Source: an uncultured Streptomycetaceae bacterium
GTDB taxonomy: Bacteria; Pseudomonadota; Gammaproteobacteria; Burkholderiales; SG8-41
Direction of reading: 5' to 3'
NCBI GenBank assembly: GCA_964521405.1
Contig: CAZFRR010000176.1
Span: 16,285 to 80,284, forward strand
DNA: 64,000 nt
Shown: positions 25,654 through 51,785 of the stretch, piece after piece
Layout of the letters: every line of letters starts with the position of its first letter
Position numbering within the stretch: position 1 is the first letter of the stretch
Notes under the pieces: model-generated
Database searches by the model: none
What the model was told of the DNA's origin: nothing
Seen by the model: the letters and a program-made list of their open reading frames with translations, nothing else
Position numbers and translations under genes: made by a program

Positions 25654-25672
25654 CTATTTATGAATAACGCTT

Positions 25673-27515: not shown

Positions 27516-27585
27516 TCAAGCGGCAGCGCAGGCCGTTGGAGCGGACGCAAGCGCCGCTCAACGGCGAAGAGACTTTCGAAAGCTA

Positions 27586-27614
27586 AAAAGCCCGCCGTCA
27601 GGCGGGCTTTTTTA
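27586..27614 (+). terminator. intrinsic terminator after rpmG
   Basis: aaaaaGCCCGCC-gtca-GGCGGGCtttttt. Confidence 0.85.
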
Positions 27615-27619
27615 TTCAA

Positions 27620-27656
27620 CTCGAAACTCGAAACTTGGAACCTGGAACCTGGAACC
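27620..27656. repeat. tandem heptamers (CTCGAAA x2, CTTGGAA, CCTGGAA x2)
   Basis: Single array between the rpmG terminator and the convergent desaturase stop. Confidence 0.75.
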
Positions 27657-31705: not shown

Positions 31706-31803
31706 GTTCCGAGTTCCGAGTTCAATGTTCCGAGTTCAAAGCTCAAAGCTCAACCGGGAACTCCGACTTCGGAACCCGGAACCCGGAACCCGGAACCCGG
31801 AAC
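31706..31803. repeat. inverted heptamer arrays (GTTCCGA/GTTCAAW-type / CCGGAAC x4)
   Basis: Left arm 31706-31754, right arm 31770-31803. The element exactly fills the gap between the upstream stop (31804) and the rsmB start (31704). Confidence 0.9.
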
Positions 31804-32817
31804 TCATTCTTCGCTGATGCGGATCTCGCTCACCACCTGCTCGCCGGAGAACCTGCCTTCGCGGTCGAAGTGGCGGATGAGGACGGGCAGGTAGCGGTAC
31901 TCCGTGGCGAGCCAGATCTGGATGCTTTCCATTCCTTGTTTCGGCAGTTGCTTCACTGGCAGCGCGCGCAACGTCCCGATCGGGGTCTCGATGCTCTCCT
32001 CGGGCGTGACCTCGATTTCATAGATATCGAAGCGTGAACCGGTCGTCACCGGCACCCGGAAGCGGCCGGGCAGGGGCGGCATCACAGTGTGATGGTAGAT
32101 CAGGCTCATCAGGTCCTGGGTGCCCTCCGGCAGGGGCGCTTGCCGCGGTTCCCGCGCCAGGCCGTAGGCGAGGCTGCCCGCGCTCCAGTCAAAGCGCGCC
32201 TGTGCGGCCTCGGTCTGGCCGCGCCGGGTGCGGCTCATCAGGAAGGAATCGGGCCGCAATCCTTCGCGCGTGATCCGGCCCTGGCTCAGGTAACGCAGGC
32301 GCTGCGGCCGGAACAACTCGACGACGCCGCTGGTCTCGGCATCGCTCGTAATCCGGTAGACGCTGTTTTCGACCTCCCACGACTGCACGACCCTGCCCAC
32401 GGGGGAACGGTCCTCGCCGTAGACCAGCGTGTAGGTGATGCGCCCCCTGCGCGGCAGGCTGTGCGCAATCGGGGCGGTGGACTCCACGGCGAGCGCGATC
32501 TTCTGCGGGGGCTCCGGCGCGACGGGTTCATCCGCCGCGATTTCCGCTGGTGCGACATCGGGGAGGGCTTCCGGCAAGACGAGGGGGCTGGCTGCCGCGA
32601 GCACCGGGATCGGCGGCGCGGGTGCGGCACGCTGCGGATTCTGCACTCTTGGCCGGGGCGCCGTTGGCCTGATTTCCGGAGCAGGCGAGAGCCGCGCGAT
32701 GAGCGGCCGCGCCGCGCGCTCCGGTTGCGGGATCAGCAGCCATTCTCCGGAAATGACCAGCCCGTGCAGCGCTACGGACACGAGAGCAGCGAGTAACAGG
32801 CGGGCGCGTGTCGTCAC
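31804..32817 (-). CDS. membrane-anchored Pro-rich / DUF3108-like protein
   Basis: N-terminal TM helix, a TonB-like proline-rich linker, and a C-terminal region paralogous to the next gene (…IWLATEYRYLPVLIRHFDREG compared with …IWLAPEHRFLPVKLLVLEEDG). Confidence 0.55.
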   Translation of the reverse strand: MTTRARLLLAALVSVALHGLVISGEWLLIPQPERAARPLIARLSPAPEIRPTAPRPRVQNPQRAAPAPPIPVLAAASPLVLPEALPDVAPAEIAADEPVAPEPPQKIALAVESTAPIAHSLPRRGRITYTLVYGEDRSPVGRVVQSWEVENSVYRITSDAETSGVVELFRPQRLRYLSQGRITREGLRPDSFLMSRTRRGQTEAAQARFDWSAGSLAYGLAREPRQAPLPEGTQDLMSLIYHHTVMPPLPGRFRVPVTTGSRFDIYEIEVTPEESIETPIGTLRALPVKQLPKQGMESIQIWLATEYRYLPVLIRHFDREGRFSGEQVVSEIRISEE

Positions 32818-34179: not shown

Positions 34180-34192
34180 GCTCGACGTATCA

Positions 34193-34279
34193 ATGTTGAA
34201 TTTTGAGTGTTGAGTGTTGAATTGGAAAAGACCGGGGCCAGAGGTGCCTTTGCAATTCAACATTCAACATTCAACATTC
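34193..34279. repeat. inverted heptamer arrays (GTGTTGA-type / ATTCAAC x3)
   Basis: atgttgaattttgagtgttgagtgttgaatt pairs with aattcaacattcaacattcaacattc, in the purM-purN intercistronic gap. Confidence 0.85.
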
Positions 34280-36835: not shown

Positions 36836-36838
36836 CAT

Positions 36839-36950
36839 GTTCCGAGTTCAATGTTCCGAGTTCAATGTTCCGAGTTCAATGTCCAAATTTCCCGCGTAAA
36901 CCTCAAACCTTAACCCTAAACCCGGAACCCGGAACTCGGAACCTTAAACC
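36839..36950. repeat. inverted heptamer arrays (GTTCCGA GTTCAAT x3 / AACCYNA-ACCCGGA-type x7)
   Basis: The left arm is a 14-nt unit repeated 3 times (36839-36885). The right arm is 36899-36950 and ends at the pcnB start. Confidence 0.85.
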
Positions 36951-38318
36951 GTGATAACGCGCTTCCTAGGCAAGATGTTTTCCGGCCGCCTGTTCGGGCC
37001 GGTGCAGCCTAAGATCATCCCGGCGGACGTGCACGGCATCAACCGCAACGCGATCAGTCCCTGCGCGCTGCGCACGACGCAGGCGCTCCAGCGCGAGGGC
37101 CACGCCGCGTTCGTGGTCGGCGGCGCGGTGAGAGACCTGATCCTCGGCGGCAAGCCCAAGGATTTCGATATCGCGACCGACGCCACGCCGGAGCAGGTGC
37201 GGCAGATTTTCCGCCGCTCGCGGATCATCGGGCGCAGGTTCCGCCTGGTGCACGTGCTGTGCGGGCCGGAGATGGTGGAGGTGTCCACCTTCCGCGGCGC
37301 CCATACGCCGGACGAGAGCGACGGGGGCGTCGCTGACGAGCACGGCCGGATACTCCGCGACAACGTATTCGGGAACCAGGAGCAGGATGCCACCCGCCGC
37401 GATTTCACCCTCAACGCGCTGTTCTACGACCCGACCACGCAGGAAGTCTGGGACTATCACGGCGGCGTGGCCGACCTGAAAAAGCGGCGGTTGCGCTTGA
37501 TCGGCGACCCGGAGCGGCGCTATCGGGAAGACCCGATCCGCATGCTGCGCGCGGTGCGGTTCGCGTCGAGCCGCGGGATCGAGATCGACGCGGCGACCCG
37601 CCGGCCGATACACAGGCTCGCCGGGCTGCTTGCTCACGTGCCGCCGTCGCGGCTGCTCGACGAGATGCTGAAGCTGCTGCTTTGCGGCCACGCCGCGGAA
37701 GCCGTGGCGCAATTGCGCAAGGAAGGCCTGCACCACGGCGTACTGCCATTGCTCGATGTGGCCATAGGCAGGGCGGCCGGCGAGCGGTTCGTGATGGCCG
37801 CGCTTGCCAGCACCGACGAACGCGTCCGCGCCGGCAAGACGGTGATGCCGGGCTTTCTGTTCGCGTCGCTGCTGTGGCCCGAGGTCCAGGCCGAGTGGAA
37901 GGTGCTGGAAGAGAAGAACATGCCGCCGGTCCCGGCGCTGTACCAGGCGATGGACCACGTGATGAAGGCCCAGGCGGGGAAGCTGCCGATTCCGCACCGC
38001 TACGGCGCCGACATGAGGGAGATCTGGGCGATGCAGCCGCGGTTTCTCCAGCGGGCCGGCAAGCGCCCGTACCGGCTACTCGAACATCCGCGCTTTCGCG
38101 CCAGTTACGATTTCCTGCTGCTGCGCTGCGAGAGCGGCGACGCCGATCGCCTGCTCGGCGAGTGGTGGGGGCGATTCCAGCGAGCCGGTGAAGACGAGCG
38201 CGGCCAGATGCTGGTGAGCGACAGCGAGCCGCGTGGCCGCCGGCGGCGCCGGCGGCGCAAACCGCGCGGGCCGGGGGGCGGGCCGGACCATGGCGGGGAA
38301 ACAAGCCCCGCGAGCTGA
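36951..38318 (+). CDS. pcnB: poly(A) polymerase I
   Basis: VVGGAVRDLILGGKPKDFDIATDATPEQVRQIFRRSRIIGRRFRLVHV. Arg-rich C-terminus. Start uncertain: GTG 36951 or ATG 36975. Confidence 0.9.
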   Translation: MITRFLGKMFSGRLFGPVQPKIIPADVHGINRNAISPCALRTTQALQREGHAAFVVGGAVRDLILGGKPKDFDIATDATPEQVRQIFRRSRIIGRRFRLVHVLCGPEMVEVSTFRGAHTPDESDGGVADEHGRILRDNVFGNQEQDATRRDFTLNALFYDPTTQEVWDYHGGVADLKKRRLRLIGDPERRYREDPIRMLRAVRFASSRGIEIDAATRRPIHRLAGLLAHVPPSRLLDEMLKLLLCGHAAEAVAQLRKEGLHHGVLPLLDVAIGRAAGERFVMAALASTDERVRAGKTVMPGFLFASLLWPEVQAEWKVLEEKNMPPVPALYQAMDHVMKAQAGKLPIPHRYGADMREIWAMQPRFLQRAGKRPYRLLEHPRFRASYDFLLLRCESGDADRLLGEWWGRFQRAGEDERGQMLVSDSEPRGRRRRRRRKPRGPGGGPDHGGETSPAS

Positions 38319-38385
38319 AGGCTGAAGGCAGAAGGCAAAAGGAAGGTTGTGGCACCAGTCACGAGTCACGAGTCGCGAGTCACGG
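38314..38385. repeat. two unrelated heptamer arrays side by side (GCWGAAG x4-5, then GTCACGA x4)
   Basis: gctgaag gctgaag gcagaag gcaaaag gaaggtt (38314-38348, containing the pcnB TGA). gtcacga gtcacga gtcgcga gtcacgg (38358-38385, inside the first folK codons). The two arrays are not complementary to each other. Confidence 0.8.
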
Positions 38386-38882
38386 CCTTCATTGCCCTGG
38401 GATCGAATCTTGGCGGTTCGGCAGTGCAGATACGCTCGGCGCTGCGCGCGCTGGAAAAGCTGCCGGACACACGCCTCGTGCGCGAGTCTTCTTTCTACCG
38501 CAACCCGCCGGAGGGCGGGCTCGACCAGCCGGCGTTCGTGAACGCGGTGGCGGAAATCGAGACACGCCTTGCCCCGCGCGCGCTGCTCGACCGGCTGCTC
38601 GAGATCGAGCGCGCCCACGGCCGGGTGCGGGACTATCCCAACGCGCCGCGCACGCTCGATCTGGATATCGCCCTCTACGGGGATAGCGTGATCCAGGAGC
38701 CCGGGCTCACGGTCCCTCATCCGCGGATGAGGGAGCGTGCTTTCGTGCTGGTGCCGCTCGCAGAAATCGCGCCCGATGCCGTGGTGCCGGGCAAGGGGCG
38801 CGTCGCCGATCTTGCCGGCAGGCTCGACGCCTCCGGCCTGGTTAAGCTTGAAAATCAGGAAACCGCAGATAAACGCAGATAG
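38349..38882 (+). CDS. folK: 2-amino-4-hydroxy-6-hydroxymethyldihydropteridine diphosphokinase
   Basis: FIALGSNLG, RTLDLDIALYGD and LTVPHPRMRERAFVLVPLAEI. GTG start. Both ends of the ORF are repeat-encoded. Confidence 0.85.
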   Translation: MAPVTSHESRVTAFIALGSNLGGSAVQIRSALRALEKLPDTRLVRESSFYRNPPEGGLDQPAFVNAVAEIETRLAPRALLDRLLEIERAHGRVRDYPNAPRTLDLDIALYGDSVIQEPGLTVPHPRMRERAFVLVPLAEIAPDAVVPGKGRVADLAGRLDASGLVKLENQETADKRR

Positions 38883-39003
38883 ACGCTGATCAAAAAACCA
38901 GAATGGCCTTTTATTTTCTATTTTTCTCTGTGAACACGATATTCTCTGTGTCAATGGTTTTCGGGTTGGAACCTATCCGCGTTTATCTGCGTTTATCTGC
39001 GGC
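38858..39003. repeat. inverted repeat with 10-nt-unit arms (CGCAGATARA) and AACCGC / GCGG termini
   Basis: ggaaaccgcagataaacgcagatagacgctgatc pairs with atccgcgtttatctgcgtttatctgcgg. The left arm supplies the last 7 codons and the TAG of folK. The spacer carries a TTCTCTGTG x2 motif like the arms at 39819-39847. Confidence 0.85.
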
Positions 39004-39021: not shown

Positions 39022-39672
39022 ATGAGTGCGAAGCTGCCGGAGAAGTACCGCTACATCGTGATCGAGGGCCCGATCGGCGCGGGCAAGACCAGCCTCGCCC
39101 GCCTGCTGAGCCGGCACTCGGGCGGGGAGGCGCTGCTGGAGGATCCGGACGCGAACCCGTTTCTCCCCGGCTTCTACCAGGACCGCGCGCGCTACGCGCT
39201 GCCGACGCAGCTCTATTTCCTGTTCCAGCGCGCGACGCAATTGCGCGCGCTGTCCCAGCCGGACTTGTTTGCCGGCAACACCATTGCCGACTTCATGATC
39301 GAGAAGGATTCTCTGTTCGCGCGGCTCACGCTCTCCGACGACGAGTACGCGCTTTACCGCCAGGTCTACGCGCAGTTGAAGCCGCAGGCGCCCGCGCCGG
39401 ATCTCGTCGTCTATCTGCAGGCCTCGCCCGAGACGCTGATCGAACGCGTGCGCCGCCGCGGTGTTGCTTACGAGCGCGCCATTCCCGACGAGTATCTGGT
39501 GCGGCTCGCGGAAATCTATGCGCGGTTCTTCTACCAGTACGACGCGGCGCCGGTGCTGACCGTCAATTCCGATAATCTAAATTTTGTTGATCAGCCTGGT
39601 GATTTTGATTTATTGTTGACCCGTATAGCGGGCCTGCGCGGCCCGCGTGAGTTTTTCAGTATGGGCAGTTAA
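39022..39672 (+). CDS. deoxynucleoside kinase family protein
   Basis: P-loop IVIEGPIGAGKTSLARLL and an ERVRRRG-type LID motif. Confidence 0.8.
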   Translation: MSAKLPEKYRYIVIEGPIGAGKTSLARLLSRHSGGEALLEDPDANPFLPGFYQDRARYALPTQLYFLFQRATQLRALSQPDLFAGNTIADFMIEKDSLFARLTLSDDEYALYRQVYAQLKPQAPAPDLVVYLQASPETLIERVRRRGVAYERAIPDEYLVRLAEIYARFFYQYDAAPVLTVNSDNLNFVDQPGDFDLLLTRIAGLRGPREFFSMGS

Positions 39673-39674
39673 AT

Positions 39675-39847
39675 CAGCCACAGAGAACACAGAGGTCACA
39701 GAGAAGGAGTTCATGAACCGTCAGGGCGCGGGCGTGACAGCATCATGGTATATCCTTATGGATTGAGGCGCGGGCATTTGCTCGTCCTGGGCTGTTTCGT
39801 TTTTTTCTGTAAATGTTTTTCTCCGTGATCTCTGTGTTCTCTGTGGC
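39675..39847. repeat. inverted repeat with 9-nt-unit arms (CACAGAGRN)
   Basis: cagccacagagaacacagaggtcacagagaagg pairs with ttctccgtgatctctgtgttctctgtggc, with a spacer of about 110 nt. Confidence 0.85.
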
Positions 39848-39861: not shown

Positions 39862-40653
39862 ATGCGCATCACGCTCACCACGCTGCAGAAAATGGCGCAG
39901 GAAGGCTCTAGAATCGCGATGCTGACCTGCTACGACGCGAGCTTCGCCGCCGTGCTCGAGGAGGCCGGCGTGGATTCGCTGCTGGTCGGGGATTCGCTCG
40001 GCAACGTGCTGCAGGGGCACGAGTCCACGCTGCCGGTGACACTGCGCGACATGGTCTATCACACCCAGTGCGTCGCGCGCGGTTCCAAGCGCGCCTTCAT
40101 CGTCGGCGATATGTCGTTCGGCAGCTTCCAGGTGTCGCCGGAGGAGACTTTGCGCAACGCCGCGGAGTTGATGGCCGCCGGCGCCCACATGGTGAAGATC
40201 GAGGGCGGCCGGCCGATGCTCGAAACCATCGAGTTTCTCACCGACCGCGGCATCCCGGTGTGCGGGCACTTGGGATTGACGCCGCAGTCGGTGCACGCGC
40301 TTGGCGGCTACCGGGTGCAGGGCAGGGGCGAGGATGCCGGGCAGCAGTTGTTGAGGGAGGCGAAGCAGCTCGAGCAGGCCGGCGCCGGCATGATCGTGCT
40401 GGAAGCGATACCCGCTACTCTGGCGCGTGAAGTCACCGCGGCCATCACGGTACCCACCATCGGCATTGGCGCCGGCGTGGATTGCTCGGGGCAGGTGCTG
40501 GTGCTGCACGACATGCTTGACGTCTATCCCGGCAAGAAAGCCAAGTTCGTGAAGAACTACATGCGCCCGACCGGCTCGATCCAGGGTGCGGTCGAGCTCT
40601 ACGTCAAGGAAGTGAAGGCCAGGACCTTCCCGGGACCGGAGCACAGCTTCTAG
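39862..40653 (+). CDS. panB: 3-methyl-2-oxobutanoate hydroxymethyltransferase
   Basis: [24 protein letters not shown] and VKIEGG motifs. Confidence 0.95.
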
Positions 40654-40668
40654 TAAGCTGTGCTCCGG
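40636..40668. repeat. perfect 14-bp hairpin with the panB stop codon in its loop
   Basis: CCGGAGCACAGCTT-ctagt-AAGCTGTGCTCCGG. The 5' arm is the last panB codons (PEHSF). The 3' arm is their inverted copy. Confidence 0.9.
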
Positions 40669-40809
40669 GTTCCAAGTTCCGGGTTCCAGGTTCCGAGTTT
40701 AAAGTTCAACAGCGGCACCCTCAAATTAGAGTCCGTTCCAATCTTGCTTGAACCTTGAACCTTGAACCTTGAACCTTGAACCTTGAACCTTGAACCTTGA
40801 ACCTTGAAC
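40669..40809. repeat. inverted heptamer arrays (GTTCCNN x6 / CTTGAAC x9 perfect)
   Basis: Left arm 40669-40710. Right arm 40747-40809, nine exact CTTGAAC units. Located between panB and panC. Confidence 0.9.
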
Positions 40810-40826
40810 GTGGAATAACCTCGACC

Positions 40827-41663
40827 ATGGATGTGATTCACTCCGCCGCCGATCTTCGGGCGCGCCTGCAGCGCGAGCCGAACAACGTGTTCGTGCCGAC
40901 CATGGGGAACCTGCACGAAGGGCACATCCAGTTGATCGACATCGCCAAGCCGCGCGCGGCCTGCACCGTCGTGAGCATTTTCGTGAACCGCCTGCAGTTC
41001 GGCCCGCGCGAGGACTTCGACCGTTATCCCCGCACGCTGGAAAACGATGGCGCGCGGCTGAAGGCGGCGGGCGTGGACGTCGTGTTCGCGCCTGACGAGA
41101 AGGAGATCTACCCCGAGCCGCAGACCTTCGTGGTCGAACCCTCGGACCTGCAGTACATCCTGGAAGGCGCGCACCGGCCGGGGCACTTCCGCGGCGTCGC
41201 CACGGTGGTGCTGAAGCTCTTCAACCTGGTGATGCCGCACTCGGCGATCTTCGGCAAGAAGGACTACCAGCAATATCTCGTGCTGCGTGACATGGTGAAG
41301 CAGTTCGCGCTGCCCATCGAGATCATCCCCGCCGAGACCGTTCGCGCCCCGGACGGCCTGGCGTTGTCCTCGCGCAATAACTATCTGTCGCCGGCAGAGC
41401 GCAAGGAAGCGCCGCGGCTGTATGGCGTGCTGAAGAAAGTCCGGGACGAACTGGGGAGCGGGGCGCGCGATTTCCAGCGCCTCGACCAGAAGGCGATGAC
41501 CGAACTCGCGCGCAACGGCTGGCAGCCGGATTACGTCACCGTGCGCCGGCAGGCCGACCTGCGGCAGCCCACCGAGCGTGACCACGATCTCGTCATCGTG
41601 GCCGCCGCGCGGCTGGGCCGCACGCGGTTGATTGACAACGTCGAAGTGAATCTGCAGCGTTAG
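40827..41663 (+). CDS. panC: pantoate--beta-alanine ligase
   Basis: VPTMGNLHEGHIQLI, FVNRLQFGPREDFDRYPRT and FGKKDYQQ. Confidence 0.95.
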   Translation: MDVIHSAADLRARLQREPNNVFVPTMGNLHEGHIQLIDIAKPRAACTVVSIFVNRLQFGPREDFDRYPRTLENDGARLKAAGVDVVFAPDEKEIYPEPQTFVVEPSDLQYILEGAHRPGHFRGVATVVLKLFNLVMPHSAIFGKKDYQQYLVLRDMVKQFALPIEIIPAETVRAPDGLALSSRNNYLSPAERKEAPRLYGVLKKVRDELGSGARDFQRLDQKAMTELARNGWQPDYVTVRRQADLRQPTERDHDLVIVAAARLGRTRLIDNVEVNLQR

Positions 41664-41675
41664 CTGCAGATTCAC
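41646..41675. repeat. perfect 13-bp hairpin straddling the panC stop codon
   Basis: GTGAATCTGCAGC-gtta-GCTGCAGATTCAC. The 5' arm is the last panC codons (VNLQR). Confidence 0.9.
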
Positions 41676-41676
41676 T

Positions 41677-41876
41677 GTTCCGAGTTCCGAGTTCCGAGTT
41701 CCGAGTTCCGAGTTCCGAGTTCCGAGTTCCGAGTTCCGAGTTCCGAGTTCCGAGTTCCGGGTTCCAGGTTCAAAGTTCCAAGTGCGGAACTTCGAATTCC
41801 ACGTACGTCCAACCTTGAACCTTGAACCTTGAACCTTGAACCTTGAACTTGGAACCCGGAACCCGGAACCCGGAAC
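41677..41876. repeat. largest inverted heptamer array pair (GTTCCGA x11 perfect plus 4 variants / CTTGAAC-CCGGAAC-type x~9)
   Basis: Eleven exact GTTCCGA units at 41677-41753, then gttccgg, gttccag, gttcaaa, gttccaa. Centre 41782-41808. Right arm 41809-41876. The element abuts tRNA-Leu. Confidence 0.95.
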
Positions 41877-41884
41877 GGTAATGC

Positions 41885-41971
41885 TGGTGCCGGGAGCGAG
41901 AGTCGAACTCGCACGCCTTTGGGGGCGCGGGATTTTGAGTCCCGTGCGTCTACCAATTCCGCCATCCCGGC
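41885..41971 (-). tRNA. tRNA-Leu (anticodon CAA)
   Basis: Reverse complement: GCCGGGATGGCGGAATTGGTAGACGCACGGGACTCAAAATCCCGCGCCCCCAAAGGCGTGCGAGTTCGACTCTCGCTCCCGGCACCA. 7-bp acceptor stem, anticodon loop CT-CAA-AA, long variable arm, T-loop GTTCGACTC, encoded CCA. Confidence 0.9.
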
Positions 41972-42087
41972 AGGAGTGGGGGCAAATTATCCCGCATTCC
42001 TGTATCGAGAACAATGAATTGAAGCGTCGCTGCGCGCCGTCCTCTCGCTTCACGAATCTCGATGCACGCTTCTCCTATAATCGGGCG

Positions 42088-43119
42088 ATGCGTCTCGATG
42101 ACTTTGATTACGAGCTGCCGGAGGAACTGATCGCCCAGTTTCCCGCCGGCGTGCGCGGCGCGGATCGCCTGCTGCACCTCGATGGCGGGACTGGGGCGAT
42201 CGCCGACCTCCGGTTCGGCGATCTCGCCGGGCTCGTTGCGCCGGGCGATGTCGTCGTATTGAACGACACGCGCGTGATCAAGGCGCGGCTCCTGGGCAGG
42301 AAGCAAAGCGGCGGCCGGGTCGAAGTGATGGTCGAACGCGTGCTCGGGGCCAATGAAGTGCTGGCGCAAATCGGCGCCAACCATCCCACGCGCACCGGCA
42401 CCACGCTCTATCTGGCCGATGCGCTCGAAGCGACGGTGCTCGCGCGCGAGCGCGAGTTTTTCCGGCTGCGCTTCGAGGGGTGCGAGGATGTACACGCGCT
42501 GCTCGAGCGCCACGGCAGCGTGCCGCTGCCCCTGTACATCGCGCGCGGCGCCGCGGACAGCGACAGGGAGCGCTACCAGACGGTCTACGCGCGTGAGCGC
42601 GGCGCGGTCGCCGCGCCGACCGCGGGCCTGCATTTCGACCAGGCGATGCTGGACGCGCTGCAGGGCAAGGGCGTGGCGCTTGCCTACGTTACGCTGCATG
42701 TCGGCGCCGGCACGTTCCAGCCGGTGCGCGTGCAGGACCTCGCTCAGCACGAAATGCACGGCGAGTGGTATCACGTGCCGCAGGCTACGGTGGATGCGAT
42801 CAACCAGACGCGGGAGAGAGGCGGGCGCGTGCTGGCGGTGGGGACGACAACGCTGCGCGCGCTGGAAAGCGCGGCGGCCGGCGGGGCGCTGGAGGCCGGG
42901 CGTGACGAAACGCGGCTCTTCGTCCTCCCCGGCTATCGCTTCCGCGTGGTCGAGCGCCTCATCACCAACTTCCACCTGCCCCGGTCGACGCTGCTGATGC
43001 TGGTGTCGGCCTTTGGCGGCAGGGATAATGTCCGCCGCGCCTACCGGCACGCGATCGGCGAGCGCTATCGCTTCTACAGTTACGGCGACGCGATGCTGAT
43101 TGAACGTGCAGAAAATTAA
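42088..43119 (+). CDS. queA: S-adenosylmethionine:tRNA ribosyltransferase-isomerase
   Basis: MRLDDFDYELPEELIAQFP, AAPTAGLHF and VGTTTLRALES. Confidence 0.95.
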   Translation: MRLDDFDYELPEELIAQFPAGVRGADRLLHLDGGTGAIADLRFGDLAGLVAPGDVVVLNDTRVIKARLLGRKQSGGRVEVMVERVLGANEVLAQIGANHPTRTGTTLYLADALEATVLAREREFFRLRFEGCEDVHALLERHGSVPLPLYIARGAADSDRERYQTVYARERGAVAAPTAGLHFDQAMLDALQGKGVALAYVTLHVGAGTFQPVRVQDLAQHEMHGEWYHVPQATVDAINQTRERGGRVLAVGTTTLRALESAAAGGALEAGRDETRLFVLPGYRFRVVERLITNFHLPRSTLLMLVSAFGGRDNVRRAYRHAIGERYRFYSYGDAMLIERAEN

Positions 43120-43266
43120 CCGCCAAGACGCCGAGAAAGACAAACACAGCATTTCAACCGCCGAGGCGCCGAGAGAAACGGAGACAAGGTATTTCTTTTT
43201 GTTTTGGTTTTCTCTATCTCGGCGTCTCGGCGGTTAATTATTGCATTTGCCTTTCTTGGCGGTTGA
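43116..43266. repeat. nested pair of inverted repeats (outer TTAACCGCCAAGACGCC.../...CTTGGCGGTTGA; inner TCAACCGCCGAGGCGCCGAGAG.../...CTCGGCGTCTCGGCGGTTAA)
   Basis: Outer arms 43116-43141 and 43250-43266. Inner arms 43154-43189 and 43208-43237. The queA TAA lies in the outer left arm. Confidence 0.85.
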
Positions 43267-43271
43267 CTTGA

Positions 43272-44402
<1,131 letters not shown>

Positions 44403-44414
44403 AAACGAAACTGC

Positions 44415-44532
44415 AATAGACAGGATTAACAGGATTAACAAGATTAGCAAGATTCAATCAAAGCCCTCCAAAGGCATTTCTGTTTTCGATCTAATCTTGT
44501 CAATCCTGTGAATCTTGTAAATCCTGTCTATT
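44415..44532. repeat. AT-richer inverted repeat with 9-nt-unit arms (CARGATTAR)
   Basis: aatagacaggattaacaggattaacaagattagcaagattcaatc pairs with gatctaatcttgtcaatcctgtgaatcttgtaaatcctgtctatt. Confidence 0.85.
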
Positions 44533-44615
44533 ACTTATCTTATTGATGTTGAGGCGAAAGCAGGACAAATCGTGTTAATATTCAACGTTTTTCCTGACTT
44601 CGGAGACGAGAAAGT

Positions 44616-44954
44616 ATGTCCGCTATGTTGATCAACCCAGCCTGGGCCCAGGCCCCCGGTGGCGGCGTGGCCGGCGGCGGCTACGAGAGCATGATCTTGA
44701 TCGTGCTGATGTTCGGGGTGCTTTACTTCCTGATGATCCGGCCGCAGATGAAGCGCGCGAAGGAGCACAAGACGCTGATCGACGCCCTGCAAAAGGGCGA
44801 CGAAGTGGTTGCCTTGGGCGGTGTCCTCGGCCGTATCAGCAAAATCAACGAAAACTACGTGTCGCTTGAGATCGCCAACGGCGTCGAGATCCAGGTGCAG
44901 CGCCCGTCGGTGCAGTTGGTGCTGCCGAAGGGCACCATCAAGAACATCCAGTGA
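44616..44954 (+). CDS. yajC: preprotein translocase subunit YajC
   Basis: LIVLMFGVLYFLMIRPQMKRAKEHK is the YajC signature. Confidence 0.9.
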   Translation: MSAMLINPAWAQAPGGGVAGGGYESMILIVLMFGVLYFLMIRPQMKRAKEHKTLIDALQKGDEVVALGGVLGRISKINENYVSLEIANGVEIQVQRPSVQLVLPKGTIKNIQ

Positions 44955-45048
44955 CTCGTCAATCGTAAATCGTAAATCGTGAATCGGTAGAGTTGATGGC
45001 AGGCAGCGCAGGTTTTTCGATTAACGATTCACCATTTACGATTCACGA
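44954..45048. repeat. inverted heptamer arrays (AATCGTR x4 / CGATTMA-type x4)
   Basis: aatcgta aatcgta aatcgtg aatcggt pairs with cgattaa cgattca ccattta cgattca, in the yajC-secD gap. Confidence 0.85.
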
Positions 45049-45054
45049 CCCTCG

Positions 45055-46920
45055 ATGAACCGCTACTCCCTCTGGCAATACATTCTCATCGCTACCGCGG
45101 TGGTGTTCGGCTTCATCTACACCCTGCCCAACCTCTTCGGCGAGGTCCCGGCGGTGCAGGTTTCGCCGCTGCGGCCGGCGTTGAAGGCCGACACCGCCCT
45201 CATGGGCCGCATCGAGGAGACGCTCAAAAAGGGCGGTATCGCCGCCAACGGCGTGTTCATCGACTCGACCAGCGTCAAGGTCCGCCTGGCCGACACCGAT
45301 ACCCAGTTGAAGACCAAGGATCTGCTGCAGGCGCAACTGGGAGATGACTACGTCGTCGCGCTGAACCTGCTGTCCAATAGCCCGCGCTGGCTGGCTTCGA
45401 TCGGCGCGCTGCCGATGTACCTGGGTCTCGATCTCCGCGGCGGCGTGCATTTCCTGTTGCAGGTGGACATGAAGGCGGCCATTACCAAGAAAATGGAGGC
45501 CTACGGCAACGATATCCGCAACGGGCTGCGCGACAAGCGCATCCAGTACACCGGCGTCTCGCGCGATGGCCAGTCGGTCACGGTGCGGTTTCGCGACAAG
45601 GCGATGCGCGACAAGGGGCTGGCGGAAATCCAGCGCACCATCACCGATCTCGAGTTGAGGGAAGTGGATGACTCAGGCGGCGAATTCCGCATCGTCGGCT
45701 CGCTGAAACCCGAGGCGCAGAAAAAAACCCAGGACTTCGCGATCCAGCAGAACATCACCACGCTGCGCAACCGCGTCAACGAGCTGGGCGTGGCGGAGCC
45801 CATCATCCAGCAGCAGGGAAGCGACCGCGTGGTGGTGCAGCTCCCGGGCGTGCAGGACACCGCCAAGGCGAAGGACATCCTCGGCCGCACGGCGACGCTG
45901 GAAGTGCGGCTGGTGGATGACGACGCCACCAACAACCCGGCGGCGATCCAGGCCGCGATGTCGGGCCAGCTGCCGTTCGGGGACGAGCTCTACCTCGAGC
46001 GCGACGGCCGCCCGATCCTGGTGAAGCGGCAGATCGTGCTGACCGGCGACCGCATCAACGACGCCCAGCCGGGCTTCGACAACCAGACGGGCGAGCCGGC
46101 GGTGCACATCAGTCTCGACGGCACCGGCGCGCGCATCTTCCACCAGGTCACCCGCGAGAATGTCAACAAGCGCATGGCGATCCTGCTCTTCGAGAAGGGC
46201 AAGGGCGAAGTGGTGACCGCCCCGGTGATCCGCTCCGAGATACCGGGCGGCCGGGTGCAGATCAGCGGGCGGATGACGACGCAGGAGGCGCGCGACGTCT
46301 CCCTGCTGCTGCGCGCCGGCGCGCTCGCCGCGCCGATGGAAATCATCGAGGAGCGCACGGTGGGGCCGTCGCTCGGGGCGGAGAACATCCGCATCGGCTT
46401 CCAGTCCATGTGGATGGGATTTCTGGCCATAGCCCTGTTCATGATCGCTTACTACGCGCTGTTCGGCGCGATTTCAATCATCGCGCTGTCGGCGAACCTG
46501 CTGTTCCTGATCGCGCTCCTGTCCATGCTGCAGGCGACGCTGACGCTGCCGGGGATCGCGGCGATCGCGCTGGCGCTCGGCATGGCGATCGACGCCAACG
46601 TGCTGATCAACGAGCGCGTGCGCGAGGAGCTGCGCAACGGCAATTCGCCGCAGGCGGCGATTCACGCCGGCTACGAGCGGGCATGGGCGACGATTCTCGA
46701 CTCCAACGTGACCACGCTAATCGCGGGCATTGCGCTATTGGCGTTCGGCTCGGGACCCGTGAGGGGCTTTGCCGTGGTGCACTGCCTCGGCATACTGACT
46801 TCGATGTTCAGCGCGGTGATGGTCTCGCGCGGAATCGTCAACCTCTATTACGGCAGCCGCCGCCGGCTCGACAAGGTTTCCATCGGCCAGGTGTGGCGGC
46901 CAAATGCAGGAAAGACGTGA
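45055..46920 (+). CDS. secD: protein translocase subunit SecD
   Basis: MNRYSLWQYILI..., LGLDLRGGVHFLLQVD and C-terminal TM bundle motifs. Confidence 0.95.
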   Translation: MNRYSLWQYILIATAVVFGFIYTLPNLFGEVPAVQVSPLRPALKADTALMGRIEETLKKGGIAANGVFIDSTSVKVRLADTDTQLKTKDLLQAQLGDDYVVALNLLSNSPRWLASIGALPMYLGLDLRGGVHFLLQVDMKAAITKKMEAYGNDIRNGLRDKRIQYTGVSRDGQSVTVRFRDKAMRDKGLAEIQRTITDLELREVDDSGGEFRIVGSLKPEAQKKTQDFAIQQNITTLRNRVNELGVAEPIIQQQGSDRVVVQLPGVQDTAKAKDILGRTATLEVRLVDDDATNNPAAIQAAMSGQLPFGDELYLERDGRPILVKRQIVLTGDRINDAQPGFDNQTGEPAVHISLDGTGARIFHQVTRENVNKRMAILLFEKGKGEVVTAPVIRSEIPGGRVQISGRMTTQEARDVSLLLRAGALAAPMEIIEERTVGPSLGAENIRIGFQSMWMGFLAIALFMIAYYALFGAISIIALSANLLFLIALLSMLQATLTLPGIAAIALALGMAIDANVLINERVREELRNGNSPQAAIHAGYERAWATILDSNVTTLIAGIALLAFGSGPVRGFAVVHCLGILTSMFSAVMVSRGIVNLYYGSRRRLDKVSIGQVWRPNAGKT

Positions 46921-47074
46921 TTGAACCGCCAAGACGCCAAGACGCCATGACAACAATGCGAAAACATTCGATTCGATTTCATCCGGAATGCCTTGGCGCA
47001 AGGCGGCGCGGGACGACGCGCATCGCTTTCAATTCATTCCGGATTGCCTTGGCGTCTTGGCGTCTTGGCGGTTA
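46921..47074. repeat. inverted repeat with 8-nt-unit arms (CGCCAAGA x2-3) and TTGAACCGCC / GGCGGTTA termini
   Basis: ttgaaccgccaagacgccaagacgccat (starting the base after the secD TGA) pairs with gccttggcgtcttggcgtcttggcggtta. The spacer holds a partial extra right arm (tccggaatgccttggcg compared with tccggattgccttggcg). Confidence 0.9.
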
Positions 47075-47088
47075 GATAGGGTTTTATC

Positions 47089-48036
47089 ATGGAATTTTTC
47101 AGAATCAAGCGCGACATCCCGTTCATGCGCTACGCGCTGATCTTCAACGTGATCTCGCTCATCACGTTCCTGGTCGCGGTAGGCGCGCTCGCGACGCGCG
47201 GCCTGCACCTCGGCGTGGATTTCACCGGCGGCACGGTGATGGAGCTTTCCTACCAGCAGCCGCCGGACCTCAACCAGATCCGCGAGCGCATGGTGAAGGT
47301 CGGGTTCGCGGACCCGAGCGTGCAGAACTTCGGCACCTCGCGCGACGTGCTGGTCCGGCTGCCGGTCAAGGAGGGCCTGACCAGCGCCAAGCTGTCGGAA
47401 CTGGTCATGCAGGAATTGAAGCAGCTGGACGCCACCGCGGAGCTGCGGCGGGTCGAGTTCGTCGGCCCGCAGGTCGGCAAGGAACTGCTCGAGAACGGCG
47501 CGCTCGCGCTGCTGTTCGTCTCCATCGGCATCGTGCTCTACCTGTGGCTGCGCTTCGAGTGGAAATTCGGGGTCTCGGCAATCATCGCCAACCTGCACGA
47601 CATCGTGATCATTCTCGGCGTGTTCTCGATCTTCCAGTGGGAGTTCTCGCTGCCGGTGCTCGCGGCGGTGCTCGCGATCCTCGGCTACTCGGTGAACGAG
47701 TCGGTGGTTGTGATGGACCGGGTGCGCGAGAATTTCCGCAGCCGCCGCTTCCGCACCGCTTCCGTGCCGCAGGTGATCGACAACGCGATCACCGCGACCC
47801 TGTCGCGCACCATCATCACCCATTTCTGCACCCAGCTGATGGTGTGCTCGATGCTGATTTTCGGCGGCGAGACGCTGCATTATTTCGCGCTGGCGCTGAC
47901 CATCGGCATCTGCTTCGGCATCTATTCCTCGGTGCTGGTGGGCAGCCCGCTCCTGATGTGGCTCGGCCTGCGGCGCGAGGACCTGGCGCGGCCCGACGTC
48001 GAGAAGAAGGCCGGCGAGTCCGGCGCGGTGGTCTAA
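47089..48036 (+). CDS. secF: protein translocase subunit SecF
   Basis: GVDFTGGTVMEL, DIVIILGVFS and SVVVMDRVRENF. Confidence 0.95.
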   Translation: MEFFRIKRDIPFMRYALIFNVISLITFLVAVGALATRGLHLGVDFTGGTVMELSYQQPPDLNQIRERMVKVGFADPSVQNFGTSRDVLVRLPVKEGLTSAKLSELVMQELKQLDATAELRRVEFVGPQVGKELLENGALALLFVSIGIVLYLWLRFEWKFGVSAIIANLHDIVIILGVFSIFQWEFSLPVLAAVLAILGYSVNESVVVMDRVRENFRSRRFRTASVPQVIDNAITATLSRTIITHFCTQLMVCSMLIFGGETLHYFALALTIGICFGIYSSVLVGSPLLMWLGLRREDLARPDVEKKAGESGAVV

Positions 48037-48076: not shown

Positions 48077-48721
48077 GTGGAGTTTTTCGCCGCTTTCGCT
48101 GACCTCGTTCTCCACCTCGACCGCCACCTGCAGTGGCTGGTCGAAAACTACGGCGCATGGATCTACGCGATCCTGTTCCTGATCATCTTCTGCGAAACCG
48201 GGCTGGTGGTGACGCCGTTCCTGCCGGGGGACTCGCTGCTGTTCGTGGCCGGCACGCTCGCCGCGGCCGGCGACATGTACGTGCACGGACTCTTCGCCGC
48301 GCTCGCCTGCGCTTCCTTCCTGGGCGACAACACCAACTACTGGATCGGGCGCTACGCCGGGCCGCGGGTATTCTCGCGCGAGGGCTCGCGGTTGCTGAAC
48401 CCGGCCCACCTCGAGCGCACGCAGCGCTTTTACGATAAATACGGCGCGAACACGATATTCTTCGCGCGCTTCATGCCGATCGTCCGCACCTTTGCGCCCT
48501 TCGTCGCGGGCATCGGGCGCATGCGGTATTCCCGCTTCCTGTTCTACAGCTTCTCGGGCAGCATCGCCTGGGTCGGCTCGCTGACTTATGCCGGCTACTA
48601 CTTCGGCACCGTGCCGGTGGTCAAGCAGAACCTCACGCTGGTGATCGTGGTTATCGTCCTGATCTCGATCCTGCCCGGTATCATCGAATACTTCCGCCAC
48701 CGCAACAGCCGGAAGGCGTGA
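48077..48721 (+). CDS. DedA-family (VTT domain) membrane protein
   Basis: LFLIIFCETGLVVTPFLPGDSLLF and GRF(M)PIVRTFAPFVAG motifs. GTG start. Confidence 0.8.
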   Translation: MEFFAAFADLVLHLDRHLQWLVENYGAWIYAILFLIIFCETGLVVTPFLPGDSLLFVAGTLAAAGDMYVHGLFAALACASFLGDNTNYWIGRYAGPRVFSREGSRLLNPAHLERTQRFYDKYGANTIFFARFMPIVRTFAPFVAGIGRMRYSRFLFYSFSGSIAWVGSLTYAGYYFGTVPVVKQNLTLVIVVIVLISILPGIIEYFRHRNSRKA

Positions 48722-48838
48722 CTCGTCTCTCGTTTTTCGTTACTCGTCCGATGCGATGAAGCCCGGCCCGTTGTTCCTGCCGAGGAACCATTCAAGAGTC
48801 ACCGGCAGCCAGTCACGAGCAACGAGCAACGAGTCACC
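48719..48838. repeat. inverted heptamer arrays (NNCTCGT-type x4 / ACGAGNN-type x4)
   Basis: tgactcgtctctcgtttttcgttactcgtcc pairs with agtcacgagcaacgagcaacgagtcacc. The left arm begins on the dedA TGA. Confidence 0.85.
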
Positions 48839-48849
48839 TCTTATCCAGG

Positions 48850-49911
48850 CTATTCCGGCTTGAGGCCTGCGTCGCTGATCACCTTGCGCCAGCGTGCGGT
48901 TTCCTCCCGGATGAGCCGGGCGAAAGCCTCGGGAGTGAGCGCGCCGGGTTCGAAGGCCTGCTCGGCCAGCGCCTCGCGCAGTTCGGCAGAACCCAGAACG
49001 GAATTCAGCTCGCGGTTGAGCCGCGCGATCACCGTGCCGGGCGTGCGCGCCGGAACGAACACGCCTACCCATAGCGAGGTCTGATAGCCCGGAAACCCCG
49101 ATTCCGCGATGGTCGGCGTCTGGGGGAGCGCGGATAACCGTTGCGGGCTGGTGACGCCGATCGCGCGCAGCTTGCCGGCTCTTACGTGCGGCAACGAGGC
49201 CGCGATGGTGCTGATATTCAACTGGATGCGGCCCGCCAGCAGGTCGATCAACGCGAGGTTGGATCCCTTGTAGGGCACGTGCACCATGTCGATCCCGGCC
49301 GCCTTCTTGAGGAGTTCGCCCGAGAGATGCCCGACGCTGAAGTTGCCGACGGAGGCATAGAGCAGTTTGCCGGGATTGGCGCGGGCGTAGGCGACGAACT
49401 CCCTGACGTTGGATGCCGGCAGCGCGGGATTCACGGTCAGGAAATAGGGCGAGTCACCCAGCAGCGCGACCGGCGAGAAATCCCTGACCGGGTCGTAGCC
49501 CAGCTTGGGGTTCAGGATGTGGGCAAGGGCGTGGGTCGTCGTCGTGCCGAGCCCCCACGTATAGCCGTCGGGCGCGGCGCGTGCCACCGTTTCCACGCCG
49601 ATCGTGCCGCTCGCGCCGGACCGGTTGTCGACCACGATGGGCTGGCCGAGGCGCTCGCCCGCCCGCAGCGCGACGAGCCGCGCCACGACGTCGGTGGTCG
49701 TTCCCGGCGGAAAAGGGACGACGAAGCGGACCGGCCGTGATGGAAACGCCGGCTCTGCGGCATGCACCGCGCCCAACATCCACAACTGAACCGCCAAGAC
49801 GCCAAGCCCGCCAAGGAAAGCAGAATAGAACCGGATTGAAAAGACTCCACACGTTCTCAAGCCTTCTGCATTGTCGCTACTGGCTGAAATAGTGTAATTC
49901 ACGAAAATCAT
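48850..49911 (-). CDS. Bug/TctC-family tripartite tricarboxylate transporter substrate-binding protein (start uncertain)
   Basis: RPVRFVVPFPPGTTTDVVARL..VVDNRSGASGTIG are Bug-family blocks. The only plausible signal peptide (SIRFYSAFLGGLGVLAVQLWMLGAVHA) is encoded by the repeat arm at 49787-49821. Confidence 0.75.
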   Translation of the reverse strand: MIFVNYTISASSDNAEGLRTCGVFSIRFYSAFLGGLGVLAVQLWMLGAVHAAEPAFPSRPVRFVVPFPPGTTTDVVARLVALRAGERLGQPIVVDNRSGASGTIGVETVARAAPDGYTWGLGTTTTHALAHILNPKLGYDPVRDFSPVALLGDSPYFLTVNPALPASNVREFVAYARANPGKLLYASVGNFSVGHLSGELLKKAAGIDMVHVPYKGSNLALIDLLAGRIQLNISTIAASLPHVRAGKLRAIGVTSPQRLSALPQTPTIAESGFPGYQTSLWVGVFVPARTPGTVIARLNRELNSVLGSAELREALAEQAFEPGALTPEAFARLIREETARWRKVISDAGLKPE

Positions 49912-49949
49912 TTTGAATTCTTGGTGGTCTTGGCGGCCTTGGCGGTTGA
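49787..49949. repeat. inverted repeat with 8-nt-unit arms (TGAACCGCCAAGACGCCAAGCCCGCCAAGG / TTCTTGGTGGTCTTGGCGGCCTTGGCGGTTGA)
   Basis: Left arm 49787-49821, right arm 49918-49949. The spacer is AT-rich and contains the ATG at 49911. Confidence 0.85.
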
Positions 49950-51090: not shown

Positions 51091-51156
51091 CGCGCTTGCC
51101 TTTAAGCGTTCCTGGTCACGAGCAACGAGTAACGAGAAACGAGCAACGAGTCACGC
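51036..51156. repeat. inverted heptamer arrays (CGTTKYT x4 / ACGAGNA x5) enclosing a start codon
   Basis: Left arm 51036-51066 lies inside the 5' end of the dehydrogenase ORF. Right arm 51116-51154 overlaps the stop of the AhpD-like gene. The ATG at 51090 sits in the spacer. Confidence 0.85.
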
Positions 51157-51681: not shown

Positions 51682-51695
51682 ATGCTTGATGAGGC

Positions 51696-51785
51696 GTGAC
51701 TCGTGACTCGTTACTCGTTCTTCGTTATTCGTGTCTGGCGACTCGTGGGTGGATACCAGGAACGAGAAACGAGCAACGAGTCACG
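51696..51785. repeat. inverted heptamer arrays (GTKACTC-type x7 / ACGAGNA x4)
   Basis: gtgactc gtgactc gttactc gttcttc gttattc gtgtctg gcgactc pairs with ggaacgagaaacgagcaacgagtcacg. Confidence 0.85.

Follow-up and report, generated by a model that had tools for sequence, protein, structure and literature searches.

Paired tandem-repeat arrays form hairpins in the gene spacers of an uncultured Burkholderiales bacterium

Results

Genes and arrays of the panB-panC region

This analysis concerns intergenic hairpins whose arms are themselves tandem arrays of units 7 to 10 nt long, found in one 64-kb stretch of genome (contig CAZFRR010000176.1, hereafter the window) from an uncultured soil betaproteobacterium of the order Burkholderiales. 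Its closest PanC matches are 86-91% identical and come from metagenome-assembled genomes (MAGs) or metagenome contigs, and exact-protein look-ups for PanC and YajC returned no match. The window has a G+C content of 64% and carries housekeeping genes recognised with Pfam, among them the following (all Pfam assignments apart from the tRNA):

36951-38318: pcnB
38349-38882: folK
39022-39672: deoxynucleoside kinase (dNK) gene
39862-40653: panB
40827-41663: panC
41885-41971, minus strand: tRNA-Leu(CAA)
42076-48036: queA, tgt, yajC, secD and secF

Array hairpins sit inside both housekeeping operons, pcnB-folK-dNK-panB-panC and queA-tgt-yajC-secD-secF, and in the latter every spacer holds one. The features on either side of panC are listed below; arms and hairpins, here and later, carry no strand assignment.

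40636-40668, plus strand: palindrome with the panB stop codon in its middle, CCGGAGCACAGCTTC-tag-TAAGCTGTGCTCCGG, 14/15 pairs
40664-40717: 5' arm of the panB-panC hairpin, units GTTCCAA GTTCCGG GTTCCAG GTTCCGA GTTTAAA GTTCAAC (Tandem Repeats Finder [TRF] periods 7 and 14; direct counting)
40747-40809: 3' arm of the panB-panC hairpin, CTTGAAC x9, 100% exact (TRF, 9.0 copies; direct counting)
41645-41676, plus strand: palindrome with the panC stop codon in its middle, AGTGAATCTGCAGC-gtta-GCTGCAGATTCACT, 14/14 pairs
41677-41783: 5' arm of the panC-tRNA-Leu hairpin (TRF, 15.3 copies of GTTCCGA, 95%)
41811-41876: 3' arm of the panC-tRNA-Leu hairpin, AACCTTG x5, AACTTGG, AACCCGG x3 (TRF, AACCTTG and GGAACCC arrays)

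An earlier note on this DNA had placed facing arrays at 40669-40710 and 40747-40809, and again at 41677-41781 and 41809-41876, and TRF together with direct counting bore out both the positions and the units. TRF resolves 40664-40707 into about 5-6 imperfect copies (TCCGGGT/GTTCCNN), while by direct counting 41677-41753 consists of eleven exact GTTCCGA units, followed by GTTCCGG, GTTCCAG, GTTCAAA and GTTCCAA up to 41783. The 3' arms end 17 nt before the panC ATG (40827) and 8 nt from tRNA-Leu(CAA), respectively, and facing arms are 76-86% complementary at the two loci. Folded as RNA, both regions are far more stable than their shuffled counterparts (40630-40830, z = -5.1; 41640-41884, z = -10.9), none of 200 shuffles doing as well in either case. 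So many pairing registers are equivalent that in both the minimum free energy structure accounts for less than 0.4% of the ensemble.

At panB and at panC the heptad array begins directly after the palindrome that is centred on the stop codon. The first 14-15 nt past the stop reverse-complement the end of the coding sequence, in the case of panB its last 15 nt, and the centroid fold contains no well-defined helix apart from the panB palindrome. Among 54 called genes, panB and panC are the only two with such a 14-15-bp stop-centred palindrome; the other genes reach at most 7 pairs and 500 coding controls at most 11. The palindromes were absent from the six relatives inspected by eye (L001, L002, L004, L005, L081 and L083; L numbers denote loci of related sequences), and the coding ends of panB and panC in the relatives differ by synonymous changes, and therefore the two stop-codon copies look templated and recent.

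Recurrence and unit families

The earlier note had named 11 further loci with the same architecture, and all 11 proved real when TRF was combined with a comparison of the inverted arms. A tandem-repeat and inverted-repeat scan of the window confirmed that the architecture is recurrent: there are about 24 array hairpins, some 13 with period 7 and some 11 with periods of 8-10 (class B), or about one per 2.7 kb. A strict array detector returned 35 arrays, 26 of them with period 7, versus 2.8 in Markov-shuffled controls. Neighbouring arrays were related by inversion in 18 of 23 pairs and directly in none, the figure for non-neighbouring pairs being 55 of 1461 (p = 6e-22). Most arrays comprise at least four units by TRF, and long exact runs are limited to one arm.

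The period-7 units belong to three core families, GTTC, TCGT and GAGKG, and not to one family per locus; each family is found at 5-8 loci in the window. Across both arms and all loci of a family, a 4-nt core is 87-98% invariant and the remaining three positions are conserved at 47-74%. In the GTTC family (99 units), positions 1-4 are conserved at 87-98% and positions 5-7 at 49-57%; in the TCGT family (68 units), the T/CGT core is conserved at 90-97% and the three middle positions at 47-74%; the core of the GAGKG family is looser than either. The 5' arm carries GTTC, TCGT, GAGKG or CGCNRAGA and the 3' arm its complement, and within families 27 related locus pairs have the same polarity and 3 the opposite. 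The earlier note's view that units differ from locus to locus gives way to a few families that recur and are not locus-specific. Its further conclusion, that whatever acts on these arrays does not act on a fixed sequence, does not stand in the face of an invariant core per family, a fixed polarity and recurrence at 5-8 loci.

The two arms of a locus match each other, as had been claimed, at the level of the 4-nt core. Beyond the core they do not: the dominant GTTC variants differ by arm (GTTCCGA x19 in 5' arms; GTTCAAG x20 and GTTCCGG x12 in 3' arms, read as the reverse complement), and the order of variants is weakly mirrored between arms (Stouffer Z = 2.3, driven by the 41677 locus). Loop sequences compared within families were unrelated, with no conserved loop marking a miniature inverted-repeat transposable element (MITE) or a REPIN, a doublet of repetitive extragenic palindromic (REP) sequences, and no conserved outer ends were found in the period-7 families.

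Class B, found at about 11 loci, is built of units with periods of 8-10 (CGCCAAGA, CGCAGAGA, CGCAGATAAA, CACAGAGAA and ACAGGATTA) and has a conserved outer head, TGAACCGCC, on both strands and longer loops (22-113 nt). The head is kept at about 25 class-B arm ends within the window.

Placement in gene spacers

Hairpins extend almost from stop codon to start codon. They begin between -20 and +19 nt relative to the upstream stop and at most loci end 1-35 nt before the next start. Gaps between called genes were occupied as follows:

Co-directional gaps: paired arrays 17, single array 5, none 12
Convergent gaps: paired arrays 4, single array 3, none 1
Divergent gaps: paired arrays 1, single array 2, none 6

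The array hairpins are not terminators. The window holds 21 terminator-like sites, versus 15.7 +/- 4.1 expected, and none of the 21 lies at an array hairpin, nor do array hairpins have U-tracts. Intrinsic (Rho-independent) terminators were rejected as an identity on three grounds: no match at the hairpins, an intra-operon location, and canonical terminators that stand beside them. Perfect bidirectional intrinsic terminators, with an A-tract, a G+C-rich stem and a T-tract, occur in convergent gaps at 19564-19605, ~22471-22500 and 27585-27612, and each of these three adjoins a heptad array or hairpin that separates the terminator from the stop codon of the minus-strand gene. A search of Rfam gave no family at gathering or permissive thresholds; only the tRNA passed, and sub-threshold matches were generic miRNA-precursor hairpins.

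Turnover between relatives

Synteny over 36.3-45.3 kb is kept in L001-L007, and within this conserved frame the panB-panC spacer varies widely:

Window: 173 nt, hairpin
L001 (PanC identity 90%): 19 nt, no hairpin
L002 (PanC identity 88%): 0 nt, stop and start overlap
L085 and L089: 0-5 nt
L004: heptad hairpin, GTGATGA / TCATCGC
L005: heptad hairpin, AGCGATC / GCTGAAC
L007: heptad hairpin, GTGAACN
L090: heptad hairpin, GGATTGA / GATCCTC

Of 155 betaproteobacterial loci, 7 have a periodic-arm hairpin just upstream of panC by strict criteria. The presence/absence and copy-number comparison that the earlier note had proposed therefore shows orthologous spacers with hairpins of other units or with none. 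The folK-dNK spacer, for example, holds a period-10 class-B hairpin in the window and a GGTAATG / CCCATTA heptad hairpin in L002. Coding blocks of L005 and L088 are 87-95% identical, while their panB-panC spacers are unrelated; the dNK-panB spacer is a 225-nt nested hairpin in L005 (2885-3105) versus 5 nt in L088 (2112-2125), next to a block of ~95% identity.

The earlier note had also read the arrays as undergoing ongoing slippage, and the relatives speak for this: CCCATTA is present 15 times in L005 versus twice in L088, and the homologous panB-panC spacers of L081 and L083 (2900-3000 in each) carry GCCATCC x5 and GCCTTCC x5, with one base changed in every copy, a clear case of concerted evolution within an array. 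The restriction of exact runs to one arm points the same way.

In L041 (7790-7918), an (ACGCACA)n array directly follows a 22-bp perfect hairpin, its unit carrying on from where the 3' arm ends, and an 18-bp perfect hairpin comes next; the arrangement suggests slippage at the end of a hairpin arm as a way for arrays to grow.

The L005 dNK-panB spacer is made of four nested hairpins, an outer period-9 class-B element, one of period 10, one of period 8 and a G+C-rich core. The outer element and its 'AAAGGnATTGAC ATG' tail match the orthologous element of the window (39677-39847), which the closer relatives L001 and L002 do not have. A near-identical class-B arm also occurs at non-orthologous sites, at 39677 in the window and at 7450 in L005.

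Class-B elements with the same TGAACCGCC head lie just upstream of panC in Rhodocyclales and in other Burkholderiales (L033, L034, L036, L079 and L118), and in IMG/VR contigs the class-B pattern runs '+ then -' at 40-120 nt in 7 of 7 close pairs. The phage-like contig IMGVR_UViG_3300005578_000008 (L162 and L164; 40.8 kb), which encodes a virion structural protein, an M15 endolysin and many ORFans, holds 17 period-7 arrays in 18 kb, including intergenic GTGCTGA / CTCAGCA hairpins; its CTCGGAA runs are the reverse complement of TTCCGAG, of the GTTCCGA family. BLAST of one class-B hairpin and the panC hairpin against plasmids gave no match, to which the low-complexity filter may have contributed.

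DNA-level or RNA-level origin

At loci where the transcribed strand is known, 23 stem mismatches were G.U on the sense strand and 28 were G.U on the antisense strand only (p = 0.58), with 46 mismatches of other kinds, and no compensatory pattern was found at the variable unit positions. The mismatch spectrum looks neutral and strand-symmetric, and these mismatch and compensation tests gave no sign in the window of selection maintaining RNA pairing. Because there is neither a sense-strand G.U excess nor compensation, a DNA-level origin is favoured: the palindromic symmetry is better explained by the way the hairpins are made in DNA than by selection for pairing in RNA. A selected RNA structure was dropped as the main explanation for want of G.U versus A.C strand asymmetry.

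Discussion

Relation to known repeats

The feature at this locus is real, dense and widespread, and its kind has been described once before. Rehm 2015 (PMC4692102) reported in Xanthomonas (GGGANTN)n / GGGAATC heptamer arrays of 2-26 units, at about 185 per genome with 70-75 convergent pairs, whose unit positions 1-4 and 6 are conserved. There, coding-strand arrays lie 0-50 bp from a stop codon or overlap it and arrays on the other strand lie just upstream of the next open reading frame (ORF); arrays are rare between divergent ORFs, vary in length between species and show no link to insertion sequences (IS) (PMC4692102). The earlier note had taken the architecture to be undescribed, a claim that falls with this report, since an already described family was what it had named as decisive. 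The arrays of the window resemble the Xanthomonas repeats in their head-to-tail heptamers with core and variable positions, their close convergent pairs, their intergenic placement between stop and start, their rarity in divergent gaps (marginal here) and their length variation between relatives. They differ in that the Xanthomonas arrays have one G-rich unit (GGGNATC), read as a G-quadruplex motif with four units preferred (PMC4692102), features that the GTTC, TCGT and class-B units do not share; G3 tracts occur in the window only in GGGATGA/GAGGGAT arrays (1689, 10406, 62895 and 63532). Further contrasts are the three or more heptad cores that the window combines with a period 8-10 class, the density of about one hairpin per 2.7 kb, the exchange of units at orthologous sites, the betaproteobacterial host and the extension of the architecture to a phage-like contig.

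Heptanucleotides are the most abundant class of long simple sequence repeats (LSSRs) in many bacteria according to Mrazek, Guo and Shah 2007, as quoted in PMC4679880 and PMC4692102, with Burkholderia and Xanthomonas among the richest genomes and polymerase slippage with a 7-nt footprint as the proposed origin. As quoted in these citing papers, LSSRs are tandem arrays, with no description of inverted pairing, of a core with variable positions or of stop-to-start placement. The cyanobacterial short tandemly repeated repetitive (STRR) sequences and the TAACTGA heptamers of Beggiatoaceae are likewise tandem and intergenic, often just upstream of starts, with lineage-specific units (PMC4679880). 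These are almost all direct arrays ('Maribeggiatoa' has 169 direct sets versus 1 indirect, and Nostoc has few pairs; PMC4679880), in contrast to the inverted pairs of the window. A literature search for the literal repeat strings found no paper.

With REP sequences, bacterial interspersed mosaic elements (BIMEs) and REPINs the hairpins share an extragenic, hairpin-forming character and a position 3' of genes and within operons. A REP is a single imperfect palindrome of 20-40 nt with a conserved 5' head that is recognised by a REP-associated tyrosine transposase (RAYT); REP families are genome-specific with hundreds of copies, and a REPIN consists of two inverted REPs of fixed polarity. The arms in the window differ in being arrays of variable copy number, which in the period-7 families have only the 4-nt core in common, and in their unconserved loops and arm lengths; class B comes closer through its conserved TGAACCGCC head. 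We found no conserved 20-40-nt palindrome in many copies, as a classical REP or REPIN would need. A MITE does not fit either, with loops unrelated within families and no target-site duplication at filled versus empty sites. CRISPR arrays have 23-50-nt repeats with unique spacers, unlike these contiguous 7-10-nt units in inverted pairs. The defining tests having failed for each, the earlier note's exclusion of REP/BIME, CRISPR and MITE descriptions is upheld. Integron attC sites, whose GTTRRRY core does not fit, and DNA uptake sequences were rejected from the sequences alone, and CsrA-type or Shine-Dalgarno-like GGA repeats, present in some units, are absent from GTTC and TCGT.

A proposed origin by slippage

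We give about even odds to the reading that the heptad hairpins are slippage-driven palindromic simple sequence repeats that turn over at the DNA level and have a REP-like effect on RNA. Such a 'heptad-zipper' hairpin is a pair of convergent tandem arrays whose units have an invariant core of 4-5 nt and 2-3 free positions. A palindromic seed of fixed polarity would first be formed, perhaps through fold-back or template-switch synthesis, of which the stop-codon palindromes are the only direct hint, and each arm would then expand and contract independently by replication slippage. Arrays would persist only in non-promoter spacers, a confinement that we infer from a period that is not a multiple of three and from the intolerance of promoters. 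The transcript would fold into a long stem-loop with many alternative registers that could act as a 3' exonuclease barrier or as an RNase III substrate, or that could fold away the intercistronic insert between a formerly coupled stop and start. REP elements stabilise mRNA 3' ends, and RNase III sites are found in polycistronic phage mRNAs; by analogy with these, a REP-like role is the most likely one at the RNA level.

Several points weigh against this proposal. Slippage alone does not account for a 4-nt core that is invariant in 99 GTTC and 68 TCGT units, whatever the arm or locus, next to three positions that are free to vary, nor for the fixed polarity (27 to 3 in the window and 7/7 in IMG/VR contigs). 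The TGAACCGCC head and the CRAGRCGC unit of class B are kept across Burkholderiales and Rhodocyclales, which suggests recognition by a factor or mobility. Avoidance of divergent gaps is marginal (paired hairpins in 21 of 42 non-divergent gaps versus 1 of 9 divergent ones; Fisher p = 0.06); gene calls are crude, heuristic and GC3-based; the G.U strand test, with 51 informative mismatches, has limited power; the relatives are mostly short-read MAGs in which repeat copy numbers may be collapsed; and the role in RNA is an analogy only. Because core, polarity and class-B conservation are left unexplained, explanations by mobile elements and by a factor that reads heptads are kept alive.

Alternative explanations

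The best surviving alternative, which we consider possible if doubtful, is that the hairpins or their arms are non-autonomous, REPIN- or MITE-like mobile elements, copied by an enzyme encoded elsewhere and resized by slippage. Class B fits this best: the TGAACCGCC head caps both outer ends of its hairpins and is conserved at about 25 arm ends of the window as well as in further betaproteobacterial orders, and its near-identical arm at non-orthologous sites (window 39677 and L005 7450) is what copying would give. The recurrence of each unit family at 5-8 loci with polarity fixed 27 to 3, the presence or absence of hairpins between 87-95%-identical relatives, and nested hairpins that look like loop insertions (43114-43239 and the L005 dNK-panB spacer) also agree with mobility. 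Some IS families target small perfect hairpins, and 4 of 6 GTTC-family loci lie directly 3' of one. However, loops are unrelated within families, the period-7 families are without conserved outer ends, the filled and empty sites of L005 and L088 show no target-site duplication, and the phage-like contig has the same architecture with units of its own. The search for RAYT-like or other mobilising genes that the earlier note had called for was run with Pfam on about 50 window proteins and gave no Y1 domain and no transposase apart from an ISL3 fragment, although 64 kb is a small sample.

That the hairpins are selected RNA devices, in which a ribosome at the stop codon opens the stem and exposes the next start (translational coupling) or in which an RNase III site sets the stability of each cistron, like the intercistronic hairpins of phage T7, appears unlikely to us. 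It would account for hairpins that reach almost exactly from stop to start, for hairpin-less relatives in which the panB stop and panC start overlap or lie at most 19 nt apart and are thus coupled, for several downstream starts that have no recognisable Shine-Dalgarno sequence and lie 1-6 nt from the 3' arm, and for the occupation of all queA-tgt-yajC-secD-secF spacers and of intergenic gaps in the phage-like contig. The mismatches show no sense-strand G.U excess (23 versus 28), however, and the variable positions no compensatory pattern; hairpins are missing from these junctions in the closest relatives, and convergent gaps, which have no downstream start, hold them as well.

Less probable still is that the arrays serve, at the DNA level, as binding sites for proteins reading heptads in an unbroken row. 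The ribbon-helix-helix protein omega/ParB of pSM19035 sets a precedent, binding contiguous 7-bp units in direct and inverted orientation with at least four units needed (PMC9499535), and the invariant, strictly phased 4-nt core, the lack of transcribed-strand asymmetry and the at least four units of most arrays conform to that model. The pSM19035 sites, though, are few plasmid promoter or centromere sites of one unit type, with neither loop-separated arms nor stop-to-start placement. Several proteins would be required to read the at least four different cores present in 64 kb, close relatives differ by wholesale replacement of units, placement follows stop and start codons rather than promoters, and the convergent arrangement around a variable loop is near-obligatory (18/23), which duplex binding does not need. 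Assembly artefacts are hardly credible: tandem and palindromic repeats are hard to assemble, and L001 (2.3 kb) and L083, which ends within panC, are short contigs, but the same architecture appears with different units in many independent assemblies and projects, always in non-coding spacers, with flanking genes intact and, here, in a contiguous 64-kb window.

A bolder reading is that a polar, templated generator, perhaps the fold-back or template-switch synthesis to which the stop-codon palindromes at panB and panC point, writes hairpins directly after stop codons and that a factor reading the 4-nt core every 7 nt maintains them, which would make them a hitherto unrecognised class of self-propagating non-coding elements. 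We regard this as a long shot; were it true, the class would be common to soil Betaproteobacteria, Xanthomonas and their phages, and the G-quadruplex reading in Xanthomonas would be incidental.

What the window adds to the earlier description is the coexistence in one genome of several non-G-rich cores and a period 8-10 class, together with unit replacement at orthologous spacers, invariant 4-nt cores of fixed polarity, stop-codon-centred palindromes and the presence of such arrays in a phage-like contig. The only detailed study treated heptanucleotide repeats as G-quadruplex motifs, and the units of the window mostly cannot form quadruplexes; the same architecture with non-quadruplex units implies that the common denominator is the heptad period, the inverted pairing and a short invariant core. 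About half of the non-divergent spacers, among them all those of an essential secretion operon, are taken up by hairpins, and this dense occupancy of operons, together with turnover at 87-95% identity, makes it likely that they affect operon mRNA processing as well as short-read assembly. They could also serve as strain-typing markers and offer a tractable system for studying the birth of palindromic repeats.

Other features of the window

The remaining paired hairpins of the period-7 families are the following:

22501-22698: GTTC family, ~10 and 15 units; convergent gap; 75-nt arms, 80%; the perfect bidirectional terminator (~22471-22500) lies directly before it
31706-31805: GTTC family, between the DUF3108 gene and rsmB (minus strand); touches the stop codon, 1 nt from the next start
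36837-36954: GTTC family, between a HAD hydrolase gene and pcnB (TRF)
654-727: TCGT family, GTGATTC facing GATTCAC units; one U:U mismatch per heptad
25559-25670: TCGT family, between coaBC and radC; the sole paired hairpin found in a divergent gap
44956-45048: TCGT family, between yajC and secD; starts 1 nt past the stop and ends 6 nt before the start
48719-48840: TCGT family, convergent gap (TRF)
51029-51155: TCGT family, TCGTTTC x3 facing ACGAGNA x5
51695-51785: TCGT family (TRF, arm complementarity)
23663-23761: GAGKG family, GAGTGTT units; touches the dut stop codon; arms 88%
34192-34279: GAGKG family, downstream of purM (TRF, arm complementarity)
62895-62973: GAGKG family, GAGGGAT facing ATCCCGT

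Hairpins with longer periods are these:

5739-5860: class B, period 8, CGCAGAGA type; head AACCGC
23177-23294: class B, AACCGCCGAGGCGCC facing its own complement
24218-24313: class-B-like, period 9, ACACGAAGG; coaBC/dut gap
38863-39002: class B, period 10, CGCAGATAAA; folK/dNK gap; arms 93%
39677-39847: class B, period 9, CACAGAGAA; dNK/panB gap; near-identical arm at a non-orthologous site in L005
43114-43239: nested class B, period 8, CGCCRAGA; queA/tgt gap
44415-44532: period 9, ACAGGATTA; tgt/yajC gap
46924-47073: class B, AACCGCCAAGACGCCAAGACGCC; secD/secF gap; arms 93% complementary
49789-49946: class B, CGCCAAGA facing TCTTGGCGG
54349-54482: class B, AACCGCGGAGGCGCAGAGACGC; convergent gap
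13640-13690: class B, left-hand arm of a split pair; a 1.9-kb low-GC island lies between the two arms
15560-15625: class B, right-hand arm of that pair, in inverted orientation to 13640-13690

Single or unpaired arrays occur as well:

27618-27656: single GTTC-family array, AACTCGA/AACCTGG, flanked by the canonical terminator 27585-27612 and by the stop codon of an ORF on the minus strand
11470-11513: unpaired heptad array, CGACTCA/CGAATCA x6 (TRF)
12612-12647: unpaired heptad array, AGTGGCG x5 (TRF, strict detector)
19611-19640: unpaired heptad array, ACCGGTC x4; adjoins the canonical terminator 19564-19605
10406-10521: two unpaired arrays, AGGGATG x3 and TCTTGGCGG x3; divergent gap
38314-38384: two adjoining non-complementary heptad arrays, GCTGAAG x4 and CACGAGT x4; pcnB/folK junction
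63532-63568: unpaired heptad array, TGAGGGA x5 (TRF)

The tandem units of the TCGT family spell GANTC (GAATC, GATTC, GACTC or GAGTC) at 654-727, 11470-11513, 25560-25595, 44956-45048 and 51695-51785, and the pentamer is also embedded in the GGGAATC unit of Xanthomonas; this sharing may be a coincidence or a link to methylation sites.

The island between the split class-B arms (13640-15625) has a G+C content of 0.57 versus 0.64, and the inverted arms share ~35 nt (TCAAGAACnAnnATTGAACCGCC...). Read from their translations, its ORFs at 13803-14612 and 14767-15057, both on the minus strand, are methyltransferase-like and cupin-like, respectively, and no transposase was seen in this reading of the translations, for which no Pfam scan of the island ORFs was made. 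The island looks like a cassette within the loop of a class-B hairpin.

One minus-strand ORF (27661-28824) joins a fatty-acid desaturase domain (residues 10-213) to a fragment of an ISL3-family DDE transposase (residues 266-384, ~27673-28029) and is probably an IS remnant fused to, or truncating, a desaturase gene; a GTTC-family array lies 4 nt beyond its stop codon. The ORFs at 57102-58358 and 19648-20430 had no Pfam match.

Genes for periplasmic receptors of the TctC/Bug family were recognised with Pfam at 48850-49911, 53314-54312 and 58241-59383, and a fourth, from 63535, by eye only. They stand among genes of organic-acid metabolism (HpcH aldolase, PrpD-like and 2-hydroxyacid dehydrogenase), as is typical of Burkholderiales.

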